IMG/VR virus record: IMGVR_UViG_3300027792_000010
Reading direction: 5' to 3' (one strand)
Length of the DNA: 64,000 bases
Source: a virus
A program made the position numbers and the translations under genes. Below are positions 16 to 51,759 of this stretch, one piece after another; within the stretch, counting starts at the first letter, position 1; each line of letters starts with the position of its first letter. The notes below the pieces were generated by a model. That model ran no database searches. It was not told the origin of the DNA and was given only the letters and a program-made list of their open reading frames with translations.

Positions 16-94
16 TGGTGGGCCTTGAGGGACTTGAACCCCGCTACTTACTGATTATGAGTCAGCTACTCTAAACCAACTGAGTTAAAGGCCC
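16..94 (-). tRNA. tRNA with CAU anticodon, probably Ile2 (lysidine type, reads AUA); elongator Met not excluded
   Basis: Cloverleaf GGGCCTT..AAGGCCC-A-CCA, anticodon arm GCTGA-CTCATAA-TCAGT, T-loop TTCAAGT. G1-C72 is paired, so not an initiator. The GGGCC acceptor resembles Ile2 tRNAs. Confidence 0.85.
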
Positions 95-1466: not shown

Positions 1467-2582
1467 TTAAACTTGGATAAATCCAACTTCATAAGGTTTG
1501 TAACGGGCACCGTACAGCCCCGTAAGAAATCGAGTCAATATGTTCACAGCTCCGATCACGTCGGCGTTGCCTATGTGACCACATTTCAGGCACCGGAACA
1601 CTTGTCCTACTCGATTCCCCCTATTGACATGACCACAGCTTGGGCATGTTTGGCTGGTATAATAAGGAGCTACAGTGCGAAAACTAACACGGTTAGTCTC
1701 GCAAGCTTGCTCAAGCCTTTTTAACCAATACCTATACGCCCAAGTGCCGATAGAACGCCGCATATTTTTACTCAAGCGGCGTTTGAGTTTACTTTTGAAA
1801 TTCATGTTCTTAAGAGCTTCAACCACGACTAAATCGATGTGTTTGAACTCTTTGACAATTTCTTGTACAACTTCATCTATTCTTTGTTTAAAAGCTCTAC
1901 GAGCCTGTTTTTGCCCATTAGAGCCATGAGTGCAGCGTTTGATACGTTCAATACAGGCTTCTGTATCTAAACCAAATTGCTGGCCATTATTAATAGAAGC
2001 AAGTGCTTTTATCCCTGTGTCAATACCGATAGCATTTACACCTTCTTTTTTCTTGCCAGCATCTATTTCGAAAGAGAACTGAACATAGTTATCTGTGAGG
2101 ATGTAGGAATTAAGGCGTTTTCCCTGAAGAGCCAATTTATTATAATGTTTATGAAACTTTATAGGTATATCAAGGATTGTATCTTCACCAATAGACTGGA
2201 GATGGAGCCAAGCATCAAATTCTTTAGAGTCCTCTTTTTCCTGAAGATCAGCTATAGTACAGGAAACATAAGCTCTTTTGCCTTTATGAATGGGCATAGA
2301 GATTTTCCAAGGCTTATCTTTCCATCGTTCTTTTACGGCAGTAATCATATCTATAGCTTCTCTGGCTGCGACCTTTCGGAGCCTAGCGGTGAGCCACGTA
2401 CCATGAGGGATGTCAACAATTTCTTTTAAGAGTTCTGATTTAGAAGGAGTTCCATTCTTCCAGAAGTAATTGATAAAAGTGTTACAGACCCGACCATACT
2501 CAGCGAGGACCTTACGAAGCTCGGAGAGTTTGGAGGCTGTAGCAAATTTAAGACTACATTTAGAAGAACGAATCAGTTTCAT
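1467..2582 (-). CDS. tnpB: TnpB RNA-guided endonuclease (IS200/605/607 family), no TnpA partner
   Basis: RuvC-I IGIDTG, RuvC-II VVVE, zinc finger TSQTCPSCGH..FRCLKCGH, RuvC-III NADVIGAVNI. All three acidic residues are present. Confidence 0.9.
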   Translation of the reverse strand: MKLIRSSKCSLKFATASKLSELRKVLAEYGRVCNTFINYFWKNGTPSKSELLKEIVDIPHGTWLTARLRKVAAREAIDMITAVKERWKDKPWKISMPIHKGKRAYVSCTIADLQEKEDSKEFDAWLHLQSIGEDTILDIPIKFHKHYNKLALQGKRLNSYILTDNYVQFSFEIDAGKKKEGVNAIGIDTGIKALASINNGQQFGLDTEACIERIKRCTHGSNGQKQARRAFKQRIDEVVQEIVKEFKHIDLVVVEALKNMNFKSKLKRRLSKNMRRSIGTWAYRYWLKRLEQACETNRVSFRTVAPYYTSQTCPSCGHVNRGNRVGQVFRCLKCGHIGNADVIGAVNILTRFLTGLYGARYKPYEVGFIQV

Positions 2583-2983: not shown

Positions 2984-3033
<50 letters not shown>

Positions 3034-3082
3034 ATATCCCCGACCAACTCATTCTCATAACTTTTAGGTAAAGTCTCTTCTA

Positions 3083-3283
3083 CTAATAAGTCAAAACAGT
3101 ACCATTTTCATTTAATGTATCATCTATCACTTTTTTATTATTCTCATATGTATTTTTTGGGCATATAACTAAATTTACTTTATTCTTAACTCTTATACCA
3201 GGTCTATCACCCTTTGGTATAACATATACTAGCATATTTCTATCTTCACTCAACGATAATAAAGCTTGGTGTTTTATGTTCAA
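3083..3283 (-). CDS. Hypothetical protein, possibly the 5' part of a frameshifted gene running to 2918
   Basis: 66-aa ORF with AGGAGG SD; a protein-like alternative frame continues past its stop. Confidence 0.5.
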   Translation of the reverse strand: MNIKHQALLSLSEDRNMLVYVIPKGDRPGIRVKNKVNLVICPKNTYENNKKVIDDTLNENGTVLTY

Positions 3284-3325
3284 TATCCGCCTCCTTTTTA
3301 GTGTGAGACGTATTAAAAGCTTATT

Positions 3326-3607
3326 CTATATTTCCACATCCTCTATCAAAGTAGCAAAACAAGGGGTACCATCTCCTACCCACGATCCTATTACGTTAAA
3401 TTCAAAATACTCCTCGGCTTCCTCAGAGGTCATCTTATCCCTCTCCATAAATATTTCTAAACATTTTTTTCTACTAAGGAGGATAAGAGGGGATTGTCCG
3501 AAACGTTCTACCATACCTATGATAGCATCATCTAAATCTGTAGGGTATAAAGCTTCATCATTAATATCACCCATATACTCTAAGAAATCTTTGATCTTAT
3601 TTTCCAT
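3326..3607 (-). CDS. Conserved phage hypothetical protein (DDAIIG..EEAEEYFEFNVIGSWVGDGTP family)
   Basis: Motif pattern widespread in phage small proteins. Confidence 0.7.
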   Translation of the reverse strand: MENKIKDFLEYMGDINDEALYPTDLDDAIIGMVERFGQSPLILLSRKKCLEIFMERDKMTSEEAEEYFEFNVIGSWVGDGTPCFATLIEDVEI

Positions 3608-3629
3608 AATGACCCCCTAATAAAAAAAA

Positions 3630-3732
3630 TACGCCCGGAGTGACTCGAACACTCGACCCATAGCTTCTCTGACAGTCCTACTAACGACTGCCCGAGAAGG
3701 CTATTGCTCTAATCCAACTGAGCTACGGACGC
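3630..3732 (-). tRNA. tRNA-Arg(UCU) with a 28-nt insertion in the anticodon loop; no encoded CCA
   Basis: GCGTCCG acceptor, GCTC/GAGC D-arm, ATAGC-CTTCT[28 nt]AA-GCTAT anticodon arm, GAGTG-TTCGAGT-CACTC T-arm. Confidence 0.8.
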
Positions 3733-3738
3733 ATAATT

Positions 3739-3813
3739 TGGAGCGAGGTGCGGGAGTCAAACCCGCCAGATTCACCTTGGAAGGGTGACGCATAATCGAT
3801 CTGCCTACCCCGC
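3739..3813 (-). tRNA. tRNA-Gly(UCC) with atypical D- and T-loops
   Basis: GCGGGGT/ACCTCGC-T-CCA acceptor; TCACC-CTTCCAA-GGTGA anticodon arm. Confidence 0.85.
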
Positions 3814-3821
3814 ATAATTAT

Positions 3822-3850
3822 AATATACTATTTGGTATTCTAACTTTAAA
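3822..3850 (-). promoter_or_regulatory. Internal promoter TTTAAA-N17-TATATT upstream of tRNA-Gly(UCC) and tRNA-Arg(UCU)
   Basis: 17-nt spacing; contains the recurring CCAAATAG-TATATT motif. Confidence 0.5.
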
Positions 3851-3853
3851 GTA

Positions 3854-3936
3854 TGGAGCCTGGAGAGGGAGTTTCACCCTCTGGTCGCTTTATCCCCGAG
3901 CGAGTGGGGACCCTTAGCTTCAAGAGCTATCCCGGC
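3854..3936 (-). ncRNA. tRNA-like element of undetermined identity ending in T-CCA
   Basis: GCCGGGA/TCCAGGC acceptor (one mismatch), TCCCC/GGGGA stem with 8-nt loop, GAGGG-TGAAACT-CCCTC T-arm, 3' CCA. Confidence 0.5.
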
Positions 3937-4209
3937 ATAACTTTCCATCAAAAACTCATTAAACTTTCTCTCCTGCATAGTAAGCTTATCTTTTTTACTC
4001 CAGTTTGCTCTGCGGGGATTTTTACACATAATACAGGAGCAAAGTTTGGTGGTATCCCTTCTTATTTGAGCTTCCTTCTCTATGAAGTCTGCTCTTTCTT
4101 TTTCTGAGGTTAGCCACTTAGCAGTACTGCCGTAATAACCTAATGCACGTTTTTTCCCCAACTTCTTACCGATGAGGAAGCGTTCACGCTTATCTTTTGG
4201 ATGTGACAT
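3874..4209 (-). CDS. Basic hypothetical protein with CSCxMCxNPR motif
   Basis: 111-aa ORF with AAGGA SD; its last ~21 codons overlap the tRNA-like element. Confidence 0.65.
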   Translation of the reverse strand: MSHPKDKRERFLIGKKLGKKRALGYYGSTAKWLTSEKERADFIEKEAQIRRDTTKLCSCIMCKNPRRANWSKKDKLTMQERKFNEFLMESYAGIALEAKGPHSLGDKATRG

Positions 4210-4236
4210 AATGTATCCTTTCCTGTATTGCGCCCC

Positions 4237-4263
4237 TCACGAGCGCATGCTTATGGATTTCAT
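4237..4263 (-). CDS. Putative 8-aa leader peptide MKSISMRS
   Basis: Strong AAGGAGG SD; the TGA stop lies at the loop of a GC-rich hairpin; in frame with ORF 4209. Confidence 0.35.
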   Translation of the reverse strand: MKSISMRS

Positions 4264-4357
4264 TATGCCCTCCTTTAAAATAAGTTTAATTCGAACCTGG
4301 TAAAGAAGTTCGAAAGCATACCTCTAAAGTACAATTTTAAGTATAAATAAATTACTA

Positions 4358-4430
4358 TGCGGGTGAGGAGAATCGAACTCCTGTCACTACATTGGCAATG
4401 TAGCATACTAAACCGCTGTACTACACCCGC
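4358..4430 (-). tRNA. tRNA-Gly(GCC); no encoded CCA
   Basis: GCGGGTG/CACCCGC acceptor, CTACA-TTGCCAA-TGTAG anticodon arm, AGGAG-TTCGATT-CTCCT T-arm. Confidence 0.9.
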
Positions 4431-4444
4431 TTAAAATTACTTTA

Positions 4445-4521
4445 TGGTGGGCTGTGAGGGACTTGAACCCCCGATCTTCTCGTTATGAGCGAGCTTCTTT
4501 AACCAACTAAGATAACAGCCC
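4445..4521 (-). tRNA. tRNA with CAU anticodon, probably Ile2 (reads AUA)
   Basis: GGGCTGT/ACAGCCC-A-CCA acceptor, CTCG-CTCATAA-CGAG anticodon arm; not initiator-like; AUA codons in the upstream leader support Ile2. Confidence 0.85.
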
Positions 4522-4534
4522 TTAATAAAAGATA

Positions 4535-4606
4535 TACCCCTGCCCGGAGTCGAACCGGGACGCTGACAATGAAAGTGTCAGGACCTAACCGTTAGTCTAC
4601 AGGGGC
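4535..4606 (-). tRNA. tRNA-Glu(UUC); no encoded CCA
   Basis: GCCCCTG/CAGGGGT acceptor, TGACA-CTTTCAT-TGTCA anticodon arm, CCCGG-TTCGACT-CCGGG T-arm. Confidence 0.9.
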
Positions 4607-4643
4607 GTAATTCAATATTCATAATAGATGTCAAAGATCATAT

Positions 4644-4686
4644 AAAACAAAAAACCCCTGCCTGGATTTTATCCTGACAGGGGTTT
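4644..4686 (-). terminator. Intrinsic terminator (attenuator terminator hairpin) upstream of the tRNA cluster
   Basis: AAACCCCTGTC-A-GGAT-AAA-ATCC-A-GGCAGGGGTTT followed by TTTGTTTT. Confidence 0.85.
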
Positions 4687-4721
4687 GAAGTCTTTGTAAT
4701 GATATTATCATCCCCGTCAGG
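4673..4721 (-). promoter_or_regulatory. Antiterminator hairpin CCTGAC-GGGG : CCCC-T-GTCAGG, mutually exclusive with the terminator
   Basis: 10-bp pairing whose 3' strand is the terminator 5' strand and whose 5' strand contains the leader TGA; encloses an ATGAT-AAT-ATCAT hairpin. Confidence 0.75.
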
Positions 4722-4785
4722 TTGGCTTTAGCCTTCCTTCTCCTTCTCTACCCTCTATACCTATGGTAGCTGGGATGTAAAACAT
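4717..4785 (-). CDS. Putative attenuator leader peptide MFYIPATIGIEGREGEGRLKPT (22 aa)
   Basis: AAGGAAAG SD upstream of ATG; codons 8-18 are ATA GGT ATA GAG GGT AGA GAA GGA GAA GGA AGG. Confidence 0.75.
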   Translation of the reverse strand: MFYIPATIGIEGREGEGRLKPT

Positions 4786-4870
4786 GATACTTTCCTTTTT
4801 TATTTGGATAGGTTGCCCGATGGTACCATCCATTTACAATTTATTAACAAATATTATAACTTTCAATATT

Positions 4871-4899
4871 AATATACCATTTTGAGATATAAAGATCAA
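4871..4899 (-). promoter_or_regulatory. Sigma70-type promoter TTGATC-N17-TATATT with extended -10 TG, driving the leader and tRNA operon
   Basis: Exact 17-nt spacer; TGG precedes the -10 box. Confidence 0.7.
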
Positions 4900-4908
4900 T
4901 AAAAAGTT

Positions 4909-5310
4909 TTATGCTAAAGCACTTAGTCCTTTAGGTAACTTTTTCAGAGTATCTTTACGTACTTCTTCCGCTTGATCTATTAGTTTATTTCTATTTTGAC
5001 CAGCATTGAGTTTACTCAAGTAACGTACTAGGTCATGATATTCTGCATCTAACACGTCTTTAGTCTTTGCGGATTGTATATCTATTAATTTAGCTTCTAC
5101 ATCATTCTTTATTCTATTTTGATTAGTTCCTTCGGCTTGTAAGCTACCTATCATAGATAGAAGTGCTAAAGCCGCCCCGCCTATTACTTTCCCGAACATC
5201 CCTGCTTCAATACTATTTGCAGCAGCATCTAACATTTCAGCTTCTTTAATTAATCCCTTACTTTCAAGTGAGTTTGCGACTACATCTAAAATAGCAATTA
5301 CTTCTTTCAT
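4909..5310 (-). CDS. Hypothetical protein with LESKGLIKEA motif
   Basis: The N-terminal ~35-aa motif is shared with ORFs at 5873, 7140, 17279 and 21856. Confidence 0.65.
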   Translation of the reverse strand: MKEVIAILDVVANSLESKGLIKEAEMLDAAANSIEAGMFGKVIGGAALALLSMIGSLQAEGTNQNRIKNDVEAKLIDIQSAKTKDVLDAEYHDLVRYLSKLNAGQNRNKLIDQAEEVRKDTLKKLPKGLSALA

Positions 5311-5873
5311 GGCATATCTCCTGTTTTTAACTTTTCAAGGGTATATCTATAAAATAATTTTTCTATTGGTCCTGGTAATTTTTTATCTACTAATAAAAAA
5401 TTTACCATCATAGCAAAAGCCTCATGCGGTGTATTTTTCAAAGGTTTTTCTGCTTCTTCTACGATTTTTGGGGTTATTACATGACTAAAATAAGATCCGT
5501 TACCTAAATACCTATCAAGCCAGTGTCCAAGTTCGTGAGCTACAAAATCTTCTATAGTAGCTCCTATTTTTTTTAGACCTTCAAAGTCTATGTACAGGAC
5601 TCTGTTTTTTAAATCTATATACCCAGGTTCCCCTTTTGATTTAGTTTCATCATACTGTGGGTGTTGATTTGTTCTAAATTCATTTATACCTGGGAATATA
5701 TTAAATACTTTTTTAAAATCATTTATAACTTTTTTAGCTATGCTTTGATAATTAAGATACTCCATAGCATTAGCTGTAATATCTATACTATAGGCTTCTT
5801 TTATAAAACCTTTTTCTTCTATAGATGATGCTATACCATCTAATAGTATTGCTATTTTTTTATAATTTATCAT
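5307..5873 (-). CDS. Protein with KEA motif and zincin-like metallopeptidase motif
   Basis: HELGH (HExxH) plus downstream PHEAFA; N-terminal IEEKGFIKEA. Confidence 0.55.
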   Translation of the reverse strand: MINYKKIAILLDGIASSIEEKGFIKEAYSIDITANAMEYLNYQSIAKKVINDFKKVFNIFPGINEFRTNQHPQYDETKSKGEPGYIDLKNRVLYIDFEGLKKIGATIEDFVAHELGHWLDRYLGNGSYFSHVITPKIVEEAEKPLKNTPHEAFAMMVNFLLVDKKLPGPIEKLFYRYTLEKLKTGDMP

Positions 5874-5877
5874 CTAA

Positions 5878-7140
5878 TTACTTTTTTATCTCATCAAGTA
5901 TCTTTATAACTGTAGTAGGGTGTACATCAGGTATTTCGCCCACAAGAAAATCTTCTAAATCTTGATATTTGCTCATAATATTAGCGGGGAATGCTTCTTC
6001 CATATATGCAAAAGACTTTTCTTGCAATCCTGCTCCATCCTCTGTTTCCATCAATTTAGTATAATTATCCCACCACTTTTTATTAGATAATTTTAATAGA
6101 TTAAGCTCATTACTATCTAATCTATTAAGAAATTCTTTAAATTTAGCCACCTGTACAGGCGTTAGTTTTTTACCCATCCCTGCTGTTTTAGGGACAGATT
6201 TCCAACCTATAGGTTGCTGCTCAGGCATGAGTTTATTCAGATATTTATAAATTTCTGGAAATCTTTTGAAGAACTTATCCTCTGTAATAGATATTCCATC
6301 CCATCTTCTTTCAGAGCTGTTCCATTTCTTCATAAACCTGATACCATCAGGGCCCTCAAACCATTTTTTAAGCATATCTTGCTCTGCTGGACCAAGATTA
6401 GCCCAAAGCTTTATAGGCATCTTATACTGATTCAAAGGATTACCTAAAGAATCCTGATTACTCTTATTTACAACTACTTCTAAAGTATTAGATATAATAT
6501 CAAGTTTTTCGGCTTCTTTTATTAATCCTTTACCCTCAGCATAACTAGCTACTTTATCTAATATTTCTAATTTAACTGCTGTATCTATACTATTATTTGA
6601 TTCTTCTTTTTCTAAGGTATTAGAGATTATATCTAATACCTCGGCTTCTTTTATTAACCCTTTACCCTCTAATGAATCAGATACCTCATCTATCATTGAG
6701 GACATCTTTTTAAATACTATTCCAAATTCTTTTTCCATTTCTTTCCTACCTTTTTGTTCTGACCTTTCAGCCTCTTGTTCTAATTGTTTTCTTTTAGTTT
6801 CTATATCTTCAGGATTTATTTTCTCTAACTGTTTTACATGAGTAGCCTCATGCTCCATAACTATCTTCTGTATATTCCTTTTTATGAGTTCTTTAAGCTT
6901 TTGATTCTCTTCTGGATTTGTAGGATGTATCTTTCCAAAAGACTTTTTTATGTTTTCTGAGCAAAGGTGTATGGTATGTGCATCTGCTCCCGGTATTACG
7001 TACCCTGCTATATCACCCTTACAAGAACGTTCTATTTTTACTTTATAAACGTGCTTGGAGGCTAACTGCCCTATTATCTCATTAAGGGCTTCATTGGCTA
7101 TTTGATCATAACCTTCTATACGAACTGATTTTTTATTCAT
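5878..7140 (-). CDS. Protein with HExxH motif and two internal KEA-motif repeats
   Basis: MEHEATH; EGKGLIKEAE(V/K)LDIISNTLE occurs twice. Confidence 0.55.
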   Translation of the reverse strand: MNKKSVRIEGYDQIANEALNEIIGQLASKHVYKVKIERSCKGDIAGYVIPGADAHTIHLCSENIKKSFGKIHPTNPEENQKLKELIKRNIQKIVMEHEATHVKQLEKINPEDIETKRKQLEQEAERSEQKGRKEMEKEFGIVFKKMSSMIDEVSDSLEGKGLIKEAEVLDIISNTLEKEESNNSIDTAVKLEILDKVASYAEGKGLIKEAEKLDIISNTLEVVVNKSNQDSLGNPLNQYKMPIKLWANLGPAEQDMLKKWFEGPDGIRFMKKWNSSERRWDGISITEDKFFKRFPEIYKYLNKLMPEQQPIGWKSVPKTAGMGKKLTPVQVAKFKEFLNRLDSNELNLLKLSNKKWWDNYTKLMETEDGAGLQEKSFAYMEEAFPANIMSKYQDLEDFLVGEIPDVHPTTVIKILDEIKK

Positions 7141-49610: not shown

Positions 49611-50546
49611 ATGAATTATTTTCTTATTGATGGTCACAATTTAGCGTATAGAGCACATAATGCTAACTTTGAACTTAGAAAAGCTAATGGTGATCCGTCT
49701 GGGATGTTTTATGGATTCATACGTACCCTTATATCCTTAAAGAAGAAATATAGAGGGTATAAATTCATAGTCACATGGGATAACAGGTCAAACAGGAAGT
49801 TCGAGATCCAACCCGATTATAAAGCTGGGAGAGCATCTTTACCACCAATCGTGTATAAAGAAATGGACGATTTGAAAGAGTTTTTGAAATACTGCGGGGT
49901 AGAGCAATACGAAAAGAAAGGGGAAGAAGCTGACGATATACTCTCAACGCTCGCTGAGACGTTCAAAACTAAGGGAGAGACACATATCATAATATACTCT
50001 AACGATAAGGATATGCTACAGGTAGTTGAAGACGGTGTTATTACTGTATTTAAACCAAAAGTAGGTCAAACACCAGAAAAGTTTTTTGACGAAGAAGCTG
50101 TGAAAGAAGAATTTGGTGTTCTACCTAAAAGATTAGCTGAGTTTAGATCCTATGATGGGGATACCAGTGATAATATACCTGGGATACCTAGAGTTAGAAG
50201 AAAAATTATAGCTAATCTATTGAATAAAGTAGATTCTATACAGTTTTTGGCTAAACAGGCTTCTGAGAGTTCTGAACTATCAGATAAAGAGAGGGAGGCT
50301 ATACAGGCGTTCCATCCGATAGCTATGCGAAACTATAGCATCGTTAAGTTAAAAACAGATATATCTGACATACAGGTATCTGAAGCATCTTATTCTAAGG
50401 AAAAGTTAGAGACATTCTTCCAAGATTACGAAATAAAGTCTATGAAGCCAGATGAAATAATCGAACTTTTTCAGTCAAGTCTAAATATTCGGTACACCGA
50501 AGCGAGGTCTTCATATAAACTTGAGACATACTCTCTCTTCGACTAA
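49611..50546 (+). CDS. 5'-3' exonuclease (Pol I N-terminal/FEN family)
   Basis: LIDGHNLAYRA, YKAGR, EADD, NDKDMLQ, GDTSDNIPGIP. Confidence 0.9.
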   Translation: MNYFLIDGHNLAYRAHNANFELRKANGDPSGMFYGFIRTLISLKKKYRGYKFIVTWDNRSNRKFEIQPDYKAGRASLPPIVYKEMDDLKEFLKYCGVEQYEKKGEEADDILSTLAETFKTKGETHIIIYSNDKDMLQVVEDGVITVFKPKVGQTPEKFFDEEAVKEEFGVLPKRLAEFRSYDGDTSDNIPGIPRVRRKIIANLLNKVDSIQFLAKQASESSELSDKEREAIQAFHPIAMRNYSIVKLKTDISDIQVSEASYSKEKLETFFQDYEIKSMKPDEIIELFQSSLNIRYTEARSSYKLETYSLFD

Positions 50547-51264: not shown

Positions 51265-51759
51265 TTGAATAAGCCCAGTAAAATTTGGAGCTTAAAGATT
51301 CTGATGGAGGATTTTTTTATGCCTATAAGTTGTATTCAGCTAAGACTTAGGAAGATAGCAAATAAGCTATTAAAGGCTGAGTATGACTATGTTAATATCC
51401 CTATATATCAGCAGTTTATAGACCAATCCGATGTGGAAAACAAGGATACCACACGCGGAGGTCCTCCTTCTATGACCGATGAGCCTATACAGGAGAACGA
51501 AGAAGGAAGGATCAAGAGGAAGCAGGATATTAGAAGACAAGGACCTCGCCCAGGGGTAAGGGACCCTTTATTACTAAATCGAGAAGATATGGGAGACTTA
51601 AATAATCCCGATTCTGTATCTCCATTGGAGAATTTGCAGGGAGAGAAAACAAGGCAACCTGATAGAAGTCCTTTCAAAAATTATTATGAAGAAGATTTGC
51701 AGAAGGACACAATAGGTTTTAACCCAGATGAGGACCATGTTACAAAGGATAACTTATGA
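51265..51759 (+). CDS. Hypothetical protein (first gene of the morphogenesis block)
   Basis: 164 aa with a low-complexity C-terminus; the real start may be internal (MPIS). Confidence 0.5.
   Translation: MNKPSKIWSLKILMEDFFMPISCIQLRLRKIANKLLKAEYDYVNIPIYQQFIDQSDVENKDTTRGGPPSMTDEPIQENEEGRIKRKQDIRRQGPRPGVRDPLLLNREDMGDLNNPDSVSPLENLQGEKTRQPDRSPFKNYYEEDLQKDTIGFNPDEDHVTKDNL

Follow-up and report, generated by a model that had tools for sequence, protein, structure and literature searches.

What controls the transcription of a phage tRNA block that lies behind a short reading frame spelling out the same tRNAs and behind an intrinsic terminator? This question is raised by segment 4899-4644 on the minus strand of the window, by which is meant the whole 64-kb stretch of phage DNA that was analysed. 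We consider it likely that the segment is a ribosome-mediated attenuator of the trp/his type, through which the tRNAs produced would regulate the transcription of their own genes by feedback. The 11-codon cognate run in the leader, together with a transcription stop signal that appears switchable, suggests that the phage probably restricts synthesis of the block's tRNAs to times when they are in short supply at the ribosome. In transcription order, the unit consists of a promoter, a Shine-Dalgarno site, a 22-codon ORF, a terminator and the tRNA block, and the parts of the leader unit are listed below.

4871..4899, minus strand: sigma-70-type promoter TTGATC-N17-TATATT with an extended -10 (TGG)
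4806..4831, minus strand: predicted 5'-UTR hairpin, directly upstream of the ribosome binding site (-9.1 kcal/mol)
4790..4797, minus strand: Shine-Dalgarno region, core AGGA at 4796-4793, 7 nt 5' of the ATG at 4785
4717..4785, minus strand: leader ORF, 22 codons plus TGA (stop codon at 4719-4717)
4732..4764, minus strand: control run, leader codons 8-18 (I G I E G R E G E G R)
4712..4721, minus strand: region 2, the putative 5' strand of the antiterminator, which includes the leader stop codon (folding and duplex prediction)
4683-4673, minus strand: region 3, the 5' arm of the terminator, predicted to pair with region 2
4644..4686, minus strand: intrinsic terminator, hairpin 4683-4655 plus U-tract 4654-4644 (RNA folding, -22.2 kcal/mol)

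The promoter, the Shine-Dalgarno site, the 22-codon ORF, the antiterminator, the terminator and the five tRNAs named in the original prediction were all recovered where it had placed them. The promoter sequence with its TGG extension occurs only once in the 64-kb window and is placed between the upstream gene and the leader ORF. Unit 2 of the same phage and the units found in close relatives are headed by a near-identical promoter sequence. Within the window, neither the promoter type nor the terminator type occurs outside the 4899-4644 unit, and this kind of terminator was seen only at units of such design. The U-tract of the terminator ends 37 nt upstream of tRNA-Glu. Hairpin 4683-4655 was detected by RNA folding and was not listed by a simple terminator scan, presumably because of an internal mismatch.

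Several other features of the leader region were noted. A 38-aa gene is annotated at the leader by the JGI gene caller. A 38-codon frame starting from 4833 was rejected as the leader, since L036 does not have that ATG and the stretch is a covarying hairpin: in the 5'-UTR hairpin at 4831-4806, comparison of the window with its relatives L036 and L003 shows two stem pairs in which both bases differ. On the 3' side of the terminator, a conserved motif at 4639-4628 contains TTGACAT. A role as a second promoter was rejected because in L003 and L036 tRNA-Glu starts immediately after the motif.

The genes behind the terminator are five tRNAs and one small ORF, and a promoter-like site also lies within the block.

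4535..4606, minus strand: tRNA-Glu(UUC) (ARAGORN, Rfam)
4445..4521, minus strand: tRNA(CAU) (ARAGORN, Rfam)
4358..4430, minus strand: tRNA-Gly(GCC) (ARAGORN, Rfam)
3874..4209, minus strand: 111-aa Cys-containing ORF inside the tRNA block
3822..3850, minus strand: promoter-like site TTTAAA-N17-TATATT, conserved in L036
3739..3813, minus strand: tRNA-Gly(UCC) (ARAGORN, Rfam)
3630..3732, minus strand: tRNA-Arg(UCU) with a 28-nt hairpin insert right after the anticodon (Rfam only, 51 bits)

Since the 28-nt insert follows its anticodon, tRNA-Arg(UCU) was seen by Rfam and not by ARAGORN, and this tRNA needs processing to work. The CAU tRNA at 4445..4521 is probably Ile2, and L003 and L036 carry tRNA-Ile(UAU) at its position. 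It could also be Met: when the acceptor and D stems were compared by eye, both CAU tRNAs of the window had some Ile-like features, which is ambiguous. Homologues of the 111-aa ORF are located inside the tRNA regions of many phages. The original prediction had warned of a possible internal promoter at 3822-3850, and this caveat stands, the site being conserved in L036; it may allow separate expression of tRNA-Gly(UCC) and tRNA-Arg(UCU).

The relation between leader and block can be read from the codons of the control run. All 11 of leader codons 8-18 fall inside the nine-codon set read by the tRNAs of the block, which bears out the claim that each of them is read by one of the five downstream tRNAs. 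In the 49 long ORFs of the window, 20.7% of codons belong to this set, and under this usage a run of at least 11 in 21 codons has a probability of 2.7e-7. The earlier hand estimate of about 1e-9 was thus too extreme as a figure, while the significance that it claimed holds. Among 1333 short ORFs in six frames, drawn from the window and three loci (113 kb in total), the leader ranks first, and the next-longest cognate run is 6. The choice among synonymous codons carries little weight for the window unit by itself, where its probability is only about 0.14, because the phage is AT-rich, with ATA and AGA/AGG as its most frequent codons for Ile and Arg. Combined across units, the corresponding probability is about 1e-9. 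Ile is spelled ATA in the window leader, whose block has CAU or UAU, and ATT or ATC where the block has Ile(GAU). Arg is spelled AGA or AGG in the window leader, whose block has UCU, and CGC or CGT where the block has ACG, and the Ser codons AGC and AGT are restricted to the leader whose block has Ser(GCU).

The competition expected of an attenuator was examined by RNA folding. The two mutually exclusive structures of the original prediction are reproduced in the folding models as a 2:3 helix and a 3:4 helix, with predicted energies in the window unit of -18.8 and -22.2 kcal/mol, respectively. Segment 4721-4712 is predicted to pair with 4683-4673 in a duplex of -18.8 to -20.7 kcal/mol, and none of 9067 other 39-nt windows pairs with the terminator arm as well as region 2 does. 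At every locus the antiterminator duplex ranks in the best 1% of windows. Folding of the leader RNA as far as region 3 gives -21.7 kcal/mol and includes a 1:2-like pairing between codons 1-6 and the 3' part of region 2, which is predicted by folding alone. The thermodynamic optimum of the full leader always forms the terminator; in the model, read-through depends on co-transcriptional kinetics. The sequences of regions 2 and 3 are both invariant in L003 and L036 and hence carry no covariation signal.

The same geometry is predicted across units. In each of the eight units described below, a canonical GC hairpin with a U-tract is accompanied by a competing helix at the stop codon, a segment at or adjoining the leader stop pairing with the 5' arm of the terminator. 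The distance from leader stop to terminator arm is 25-33 nt in 8/8 units, and the antiterminator strand starts between 18 nt before and 2 nt after the stop, again in all eight. When the transcript was cut before the 3' arm of the terminator, the 5' arm paired with the stop-codon segment in 5/5 units folded. In a footprint model of five units, masking a ribosome at the stop removed the 2:3 pairing, while a footprint within the run did not. In this model, stalling at the final two control codons would place the ribosome partly over region 2.

A mechanism can be proposed from these parts, under the assumption that transcription and translation are coupled in the phage host. Host RNA polymerase would start at 4899-4871, and a ribosome would load on the 22-codon leader. 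If ATA, GGT/GGA, GAG/GAA and AGA/AGG were decoded fast, the ribosome would get to the TGA and cover 4721-4712. With region 2 covered, region 3 would pair with region 4, the terminator would form, and the transcript would end at about 4650, before tRNA-Glu, as an RNA of roughly 220 nt. If the cognate tRNAs were scarce, the ribosome would stall in the run, and free region 2 could pair with the emerging region 3, so that no terminator forms. Read-through would then yield tRNA-Glu(UUC), the CAU tRNA, tRNA-Gly(GCC) and probably tRNA-Gly(UCC) and tRNA-Arg(UCU). Because these products are the tRNAs that would relieve the stall, the circuit would exert direct negative feedback on isoacceptor supply. 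Leader translation, the polarity of the switch and the feedback loop are what we infer from sequence and models. Two wetland metatranscriptome runs contain contigs over 4684-4820, 4852-5002 and 4576-4824, which are of read length and may include DNA; one of them crosses the terminator into tRNA-Glu, giving neither transcript ends nor levels.

The design recurs: eight units, which fall into four types, were verified (in the window, L001, L003/L036, L071, L082, L080 and L079). They come from the phage of the window and four related metagenomic phage lineages, L080 and L079 being homologues in other phages. Other tRNA blocks, both in the same phage and in more distant phages, have leaders of their own, with codons for their own tRNAs and the same terminator/antiterminator geometry. 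In a leader-by-block matrix, 11/21, 10-13/25, 14-19/25 and 22-23/40 codons were matched against the leader's own block, and just 0-7 against foreign blocks. The original prediction had named homologous hairpins lacking any codon-tRNA match as evidence against it; the opposite was found, each leader matching its own block, and leader codons tracked tRNA content among the relatives. In the relatives, the first tRNA begins 0-16 nt after the U-tract, which leaves no room for a promoter, so these tRNAs are reachable only by terminator read-through. The sequence comparisons show the parts, the codon match, the conservation and the recurrence at other tRNA blocks. These results support the reading of the original prediction, with its attenuator logic backed by the folding models only.

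The leaders of L003 and L036, the closest relatives, are about 93-94% identical to that of the window (64-65/69 nt), with the ORF and frame kept, the Shine-Dalgarno site invariant and the 11-codon run still matched. This leader identity (unit 3) compares with 71% for the neighbouring protein and a scrambled 5' UTR. Relative to L003 and L036 there are 4-5 leader changes, three of them synonymous. Both relatives have tRNA-Ile(UAU) instead of the CAU tRNA, and UAU likewise reads ATA. In unit 2, three changes turn non-cognate codons into cognate ones. Distant homologues retain the codon set without the peptide, and the leaders of L071 and L082 have a common codon set and different peptide sequences. 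When metagenome contigs were scanned with the promoter pattern, five of the 67 loci returned were true relatives and the remainder chance matches. Against 50,697 phage records, nothing useful came from megablast with the locus, from blastn with the leader or from tblastn with the 420-aa and 111-aa neighbours, and in IMG/VR the neighbour protein, the leader pattern and the promoter pattern matched by chance only.

Four other explanations of the locus have to be weighed. The same switch might respond to another signal, namely amino-acid starvation, tRNA charging or the general translation capacity of the infected cell, and so time or throttle tRNA synthesis. The geometry fits this reading, the leaders resemble those of ilv and thr in being multivalent, and stalling cannot distinguish missing from uncharged tRNA, as in classical attenuators. 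Against it, extra tRNA is no cure for amino-acid starvation, so that no closed feedback loop would exist under an amino-acid signal; across units, moreover, synonymous choice tracks the anticodon of the block and not just the amino acid, and block content and leader content shift together. We therefore regard it as unlikely. It is quite improbable that the ORF is translated and codon-matched and acts by another route, such as protection from Rho or RNase, pre-tRNA processing or the opposite polarity, in which fast translation leads to read-through. Such a route could give roles to the conserved 5' hairpin at 4831-4806 and the motif at 4639-4628, to which none is assigned, and would agree with the metatranscriptome contig that spans the terminator into tRNA-Glu. 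It does not account for the GC hairpin with U-tract and the competing helix at the stop codon, found in 8/8 units, and the opposite polarity is without a structural basis, as a ribosome at the stop codon is unable to melt a terminator arm 25-33 nt away.

That the leader encodes a functional micropeptide, the hairpin being merely its terminator, is very improbable, even though the peptide of unit 3 hardly varies among close relatives, synonymous changes account for three of the 4-5 seen and a 38-aa gene was called here by JGI. Six amino-acid changes separate the homologous unit-2 leaders, and the leaders of L071 and L082 are alike in composition and not in sequence. A micropeptide can explain neither four different peptides that each spell the tRNAs behind them nor tRNA genes 0-16 nt past the terminator without a promoter of their own. 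Chance, in the form of a purine-rich spacer with one fortuitously open frame beside the terminator of the upstream gene, has a negligible probability. The run is indeed purine-rich, with 6/8 all-purine codons in the cognate set, and the nine codons account for one fifth of phage codons. Yet P is 2.7e-7 with real codon usage and the leader is first among the 1333 short ORFs, a promoter separates the upstream gene from the ORF, and the pattern repeats at three other unit types with wholly different, non-purine codon sets. Feedback attenuation by the product tRNAs remains the preferred reading.

A wider proposal, which we favour with some reserve, is that in unrelated large tRNA-rich phages the tRNA genes form demand-driven regulons. 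A leader serving as a codon 'checklist' would stand before each block and gauge, via ribosome speed, the pool of the isoacceptors that the block encodes. A host pool that is poor, or that has been depleted (by anticodon nucleases or phage-induced host shut-off, for example), would switch the block on, and filling of the gap by phage tRNAs would switch it off. The link to anticodon-nuclease defence is speculation. tRNA genes are known to be regulated at their promoters, by growth rate and the stringent response, and by processing. In full-text literature searches, no account of tRNA genes controlled by a leader peptide was found, in line with the earlier statement that no described phage tRNA operon controlled in this way was known. 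If the proposal is true, this would be the first natural circuit of tRNAs controlling their own transcription through decoding speed and a natural sensor for single tRNA isoacceptors. It would explain how phages with dozens of tRNAs avoid needless synthesis, and the role of phage tRNAs (codon-usage matching, host-range buffering or counter-defence) would become testable via the inducers of each block. The leaders would also annotate, in codons, which tRNAs share a transcription unit, including the CAU tRNA (Ile2 or Met) and tRNAs that bear inserts.

Among known systems, the window unit most resembles the attenuators of amino-acid operons. As in trpL, hisL, pheL, leuL, thrL and ilvL of E. coli and Salmonella, regulatory codons are clustered in a run within a short ORF close to the promoter. 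The first regulated gene is preceded by an intrinsic terminator, the predicted 2:3 and 3:4 helices are exclusive, a 1:2-like pairing is predicted, and region 2 would be covered by a ribosome at the stop codon. Several amino acids are used, as in the ilv and thr leaders. Unlike these attenuators, the window unit would regulate tRNA genes and not biosynthetic enzymes, and the product itself would relieve the stall, giving direct feedback at the isoacceptor level. It is also phage-borne, with one element per tRNA block and up to 14 different tRNAs listed. Neither amino-acid biosynthesis genes nor synthetase genes are found among the five tRNAs and the small ORF downstream, and because the regulated genes are of this kind the unit was not assigned to a known operon family. 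Sequence homology to known leaders was not found, and Rfam gave no match in 4640-4900.

Two other systems resemble the unit in part. The pheM leader of E. coli pheST causes attenuation of phenylalanyl-tRNA synthetase upon decoding of its cognate codons, and so it is likewise a leader-peptide attenuator on a component of the translation machinery; in contrast to the window unit, its target is a synthetase, a single amino acid is read and the gene belongs to the host. T-box riboswitches share the codon-anticodon reading of a specific tRNA, the choice between terminator and antiterminator and the attenuation of transcription. They bind uncharged tRNA directly, without a ribosome, through a single specifier codon and have a conserved T-box motif, whereas the window unit has an SD-led ORF with many codons. 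No T-box model matched in 3600-4900, where only tRNA families were returned (Rfam, E <=1).

Outside the related lineages, the same layout is found in the Caulobacter phage phiCbK (JX100813). In this genome, a 32-codon ORF is followed by an annotated terminator and then by a Phe/Val/Ile/Val/Gln/Gly tRNA block, and the 45-codon gp083 is followed by a terminator and then by a Pro/Lys/Leu/Ser block. The annotated terminators are at 49745-49769 and 51465-51502. The phage is unrelated to that of the window and has no sequence similarity to it, and the leader match is less clean: in gp083, for example, Ala and Thr codons abound, and its annotated block has no such tRNA. Because phiCbK, which grows on Caulobacter, has the same layout as the window unit, a cultured system exists for experiments.

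The leader unit of the window, here called unit 3, is read on the minus strand and consists of the following parts; those named in the original prediction were all found where it had placed them.

4899-4871, minus strand: promoter TTGATC-N17-TATATT
7 nt ahead of the ATG at 4785, minus strand: ribosome binding site AGGA
ATG at 4785 to TGA at 4719-4717, minus strand: leader ORF of 22 codons
4721-4712, minus strand: antiterminator 5' strand (region 2)
4683-4673, minus strand: terminator 5' arm (region 3; the 3' arm is region 4)
4683-4655, then U-tract 4654-4644, minus strand: terminator with GC-rich hairpin (predicted -22.2 kcal/mol)
3' of the terminator, in order: tRNA-Glu(UUC), tRNA(CAU), tRNA-Gly(GCC), a 111-aa ORF, tRNA-Gly(UCC), tRNA-Arg(UCU)
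3874-4209, minus strand: the 111-aa protein (phrog_4499, no Pfam match)
3630-3732, minus strand: tRNA-Arg(UCU) with an insert (insert-bearing tRNAs in the related phage L036: 5337-5442 and 12957-13061)

With its TGG extension the promoter occurs only once in the 64-kb window. The 38-codon frame from 4833, annotated by the JGI gene caller, was rejected as the leader; it is not conserved, and L036 has no ATG there. Within this frame, 4831-4806 is a hairpin with two pairs altered on both sides between the window and its relatives.

Leader codons 8-18 encode I G I E G R E G E G R, and by ordinary wobble rules the five tRNAs of the block together read every codon of this run. The nine cognate codons make up 20.7% of the 16,311 codons in 49 long ORFs. 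With the phage's own codon frequencies, a 21-codon ORF would contain 11 or more of them in a row with a probability of 2.7e-7. The match was thus correctly predicted to exceed chance, but the hand estimate of 1e-9 was too small, since this AT-rich phage uses the nine codons often. A survey of all six frames in 113 kb of the phage and its relatives covered 1333 short ORFs of 15-45 codons; runs longer than six were found in the unit-3 leader and its homologues only.

The recurrence of the design with other codon sets is counted as the decisive evidence. Unit 2, located 2.4 kb past the window start (locus L001, 17656-17850), consists of a near-identical promoter, an ORF of 26 codons that includes a V/K/R run, and a terminator; its tRNAs are Lys(CUU), Lys(UUU), Val(UAC), Val(GAC) and Arg(ACG). 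A promoter scan of metagenome contigs found relatives from other samples, among them L036, with homologues of both unit 3 and unit 2, and L071, whose leader is of a further type: 19 of its 24 codons specify Ile(ATY), Phe, Ser(AGY), Asp or Met, and its block holds Phe(GAA), Asp(GUC), Met(CAU), Ile(GAU) and Ser(GCU). More distant phages were reached via homologues of the 111-aa protein. The leader of one of these, L082 (a 259-kb contig), shares the codon set of L071 in an unrelated residue order, with a block of Asp, Met, Ile(GAU), Phe and Ser(GCU) tRNAs. In L080 and L079, leaders of 40 codons that are enriched for Leu, Ser(TCN), Thr, Ala, Cys, Trp, Tyr and His head blocks of up to 14 tRNAs for these enriched codons.

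When leaders were compared with blocks across the four unit types, the resulting matrix was sharply diagonal. Each type matches its own block (11/21, 10-13/25, 14-19/25 and 22-23/40 codons), with 0-7 codons matched to the blocks of other types. Synonymous codon choice also tracks the anticodon of the block: ATA goes with CAU or UAU blocks and ATT/ATC with GAU blocks, AGA/AGG with UCU and CGC/CGT with ACG, AGC/AGT with GCU only and TCN with UGA or CGA. The combined probability of this choice, from the phage's synonymous usage and with two L071 counts (six Ile, five Ser) corrected by hand, is ~1e-9; for unit 3 alone the test is weak (~0.14).

The closest relatives for unit 3 are L003 and L036, with a neighbouring protein 71% identical. 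The promoter, Shine-Dalgarno sequence, leader, region 2 and terminator are near-invariant in them, while the promoter-to-Shine-Dalgarno stretch is rearranged. Only 4-5 of 69 leader positions differ, three of them synonymously, and the sole change within the run, GGA to GGC, is still cognate. The homologous unit-2 leaders are six amino-acid changes apart, and three of these changes (Phe to Val, Ala to Val, His to Arg) each replace a non-cognate codon by a cognate one, taking the run from 7 to 13; codon identity and not the peptide is therefore under selection.

The relatives differ from the window in their unit-3 tRNAs, which are Glu(UUC), Glu(CUC), Ile(UAU) and Gly(GCC), followed by Gly(UCC) and Arg(UCU). 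Where they have an unambiguous ATA reader, the window block therefore has its CAU tRNA, and this is the strongest argument at hand for calling that tRNA Ile2. A second CAU tRNA (16-94, minus strand) stands alone directly after an ORF, lacks a leader/terminator unit, and has an acceptor stem (C4-G69, C5-G68) resembling E. coli tRNA-Ile2. Either of the two could therefore be Ile2.

Five units were folded with the transcript truncated ahead of the terminator 3' arm and a 30-nt ribosome footprint masked. In the truncated transcripts of all five, the terminator 5' arm is predicted to pair with a segment at or beside the leader stop. In the models, this 2:3 helix is abolished by a footprint centred on the stop, which lets the terminator form; it survives unchanged when the footprint is centred on any of codons 8-16 and loses two pairs at codon 18. 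For unit 3 the predicted energies are -18.8 (2:3), -22.2 (3:4) and -21.7 kcal/mol (leader alone), the last a 1:2-like fold in which codons 1-6 pair with the 3' part of region 2. Folding thus predicts the two competing structures, antiterminator and terminator, originally proposed. None of the 9067 other 39-nt segments of the 64-kb window pairs as well as the antiterminator duplex of unit 3, and in each of the other loci the duplex ranks within the top 1%; the stop codon lies 25-33 nt from the terminator arm in 8/8 units. In full-length minimum-energy folds the terminator always prevails, as likewise in the trp leader, and read-through must therefore be a kinetic outcome.

The U-tract is followed after 16 nt by tRNA-Glu in L003 and L036, after 3 nt by tRNA-Phe in L071, and immediately by tRNA-Asp in L082. 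These first tRNAs lack promoters of their own and depend entirely on read-through of a strong terminator, which is sensible only if termination is conditional. A conserved motif with TCTTTGACAT at its end lies 3' of the terminator in several units (window 4628-4639, minus strand; L003 ~900-911; L080 ~240-251; L079 ~1196-1207). It was ruled out as first-tRNA promoter because it directly abuts that tRNA in L003 and L036, and may be a processing or protein-binding site.

Comparative evidence and folding models support the attenuator interpretation of the original prediction, and unit 3 probably works as a trp/his-type leader-peptide attenuator with tRNA feedback. The switch would follow trp/his-type logic. 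An untranslated leader would form 1:2 and 3:4 and terminate; fast translation to the stop would cover region 2, again giving 3:4 and termination; a ribosome stalled in the run would permit 2:3, and polymerase would continue into the tRNA genes. The block's own tRNAs would be the products relieving the stall, making the loop a homeostat for its isoacceptors. Candidate triggers of shortage are a host poor in ATA, AGA/AGG or GGA readers, infection-time decay of host tRNAs, and tRNA-cleaving defences, which phage tRNAs can counter according to one report (PMC11555353).

A chance origin of the codon run is contradicted by the probability of 2.7e-7, the short-ORF survey and the diagonal matrix, and a functional micropeptide is contradicted by the same run statistics and matrix. 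Also weighed against tRNA feedback were an identical switch with charging or starvation as its signal, and another route of action or reversed polarity.

Several further observations concern the tRNA genes. Arg(UCU) scores 51 bits with Rfam and was missed by the default mode of ARAGORN because a 28-nt hairpin comes after the anticodon; in intron mode the program assigns the L036 homologue to Arg(UCU), with an intron of 28 nt. The insert directly follows the anticodon, its stem takes in the anticodon and covaries (TCTC/GAGA in the window, TCTA/TAGA in L036), and it is too small to be a group I intron. The tRNA-Val(UAC) of L036 has a 27-nt insert at the same position; the Val(UAC) gene of the window phage itself has none. 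An element that resembles a tRNA and ends in CCA (3854-3936, minus strand) shares sequence with the 3' end of the 111-aa ORF and is conserved in L003 and L036; neither ARAGORN nor Rfam at E <=1 calls it. The 111-aa protein has 31 homologues, all examined ones inside tRNA-rich regions of large phage contigs, and may be a tRNA-related factor. L071 carries a tRNA with anticodon CUA (100-174), reading the amber codon, which may point to stop-codon suppression or recoding.

The window is part of a 190.9-kb contig of a freshwater-sediment metagenome (JGI 3300009082, Ga0105099_10000004), a large phage encoding a class II ribonucleotide reductase, a RecD2-type helicase, NAD synthetase, a patatin-like protein and TnpB. 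A similarity search found no close relatives among 50,697 phage records. Near-identical matches to 3000-6200 were seen in soil and wetland metagenomes and in two wetland metatranscriptome runs (2024-2025, another study); the lineage therefore occurs outside the source sediment too. The TnpB gene, with a Cas12f1-like TNB domain (1467-2582, minus strand), lies between two tRNA-bearing regions with no adjoining TnpA, and the tRNA region of L082 also holds a TnpB. A gene for a CCA-adding enzyme (PolyA_pol and HD domains) lies just outside the window (locus L076, 12213-13553; contig 100.6-102.0 kb), and CCA is not encoded in several window tRNA genes (Glu, Gly-GCC, Arg).

In the unit-3 region, Rfam found tRNAs only and no T-box, and full-text search of 8.1 million papers and 0.36 million preprints turned up no description of tRNA genes under the control of a leader peptide. 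The unit is classed as a case of ribosome-mediated attenuation in which the controlled genes encode tRNAs and the products feed back on the switch. The Caulobacter phage phiCbK (JX100813) has annotated rho-independent terminators directly ahead of two tRNA blocks. There the 45-codon gp083 heads Pro, Lys, Leu and Ser tRNAs with a looser leader-tRNA match, and a 32-codon ORF with a Q/F/V/I-rich run heads Phe, Val, Ile, Val, Gln and Gly tRNAs.
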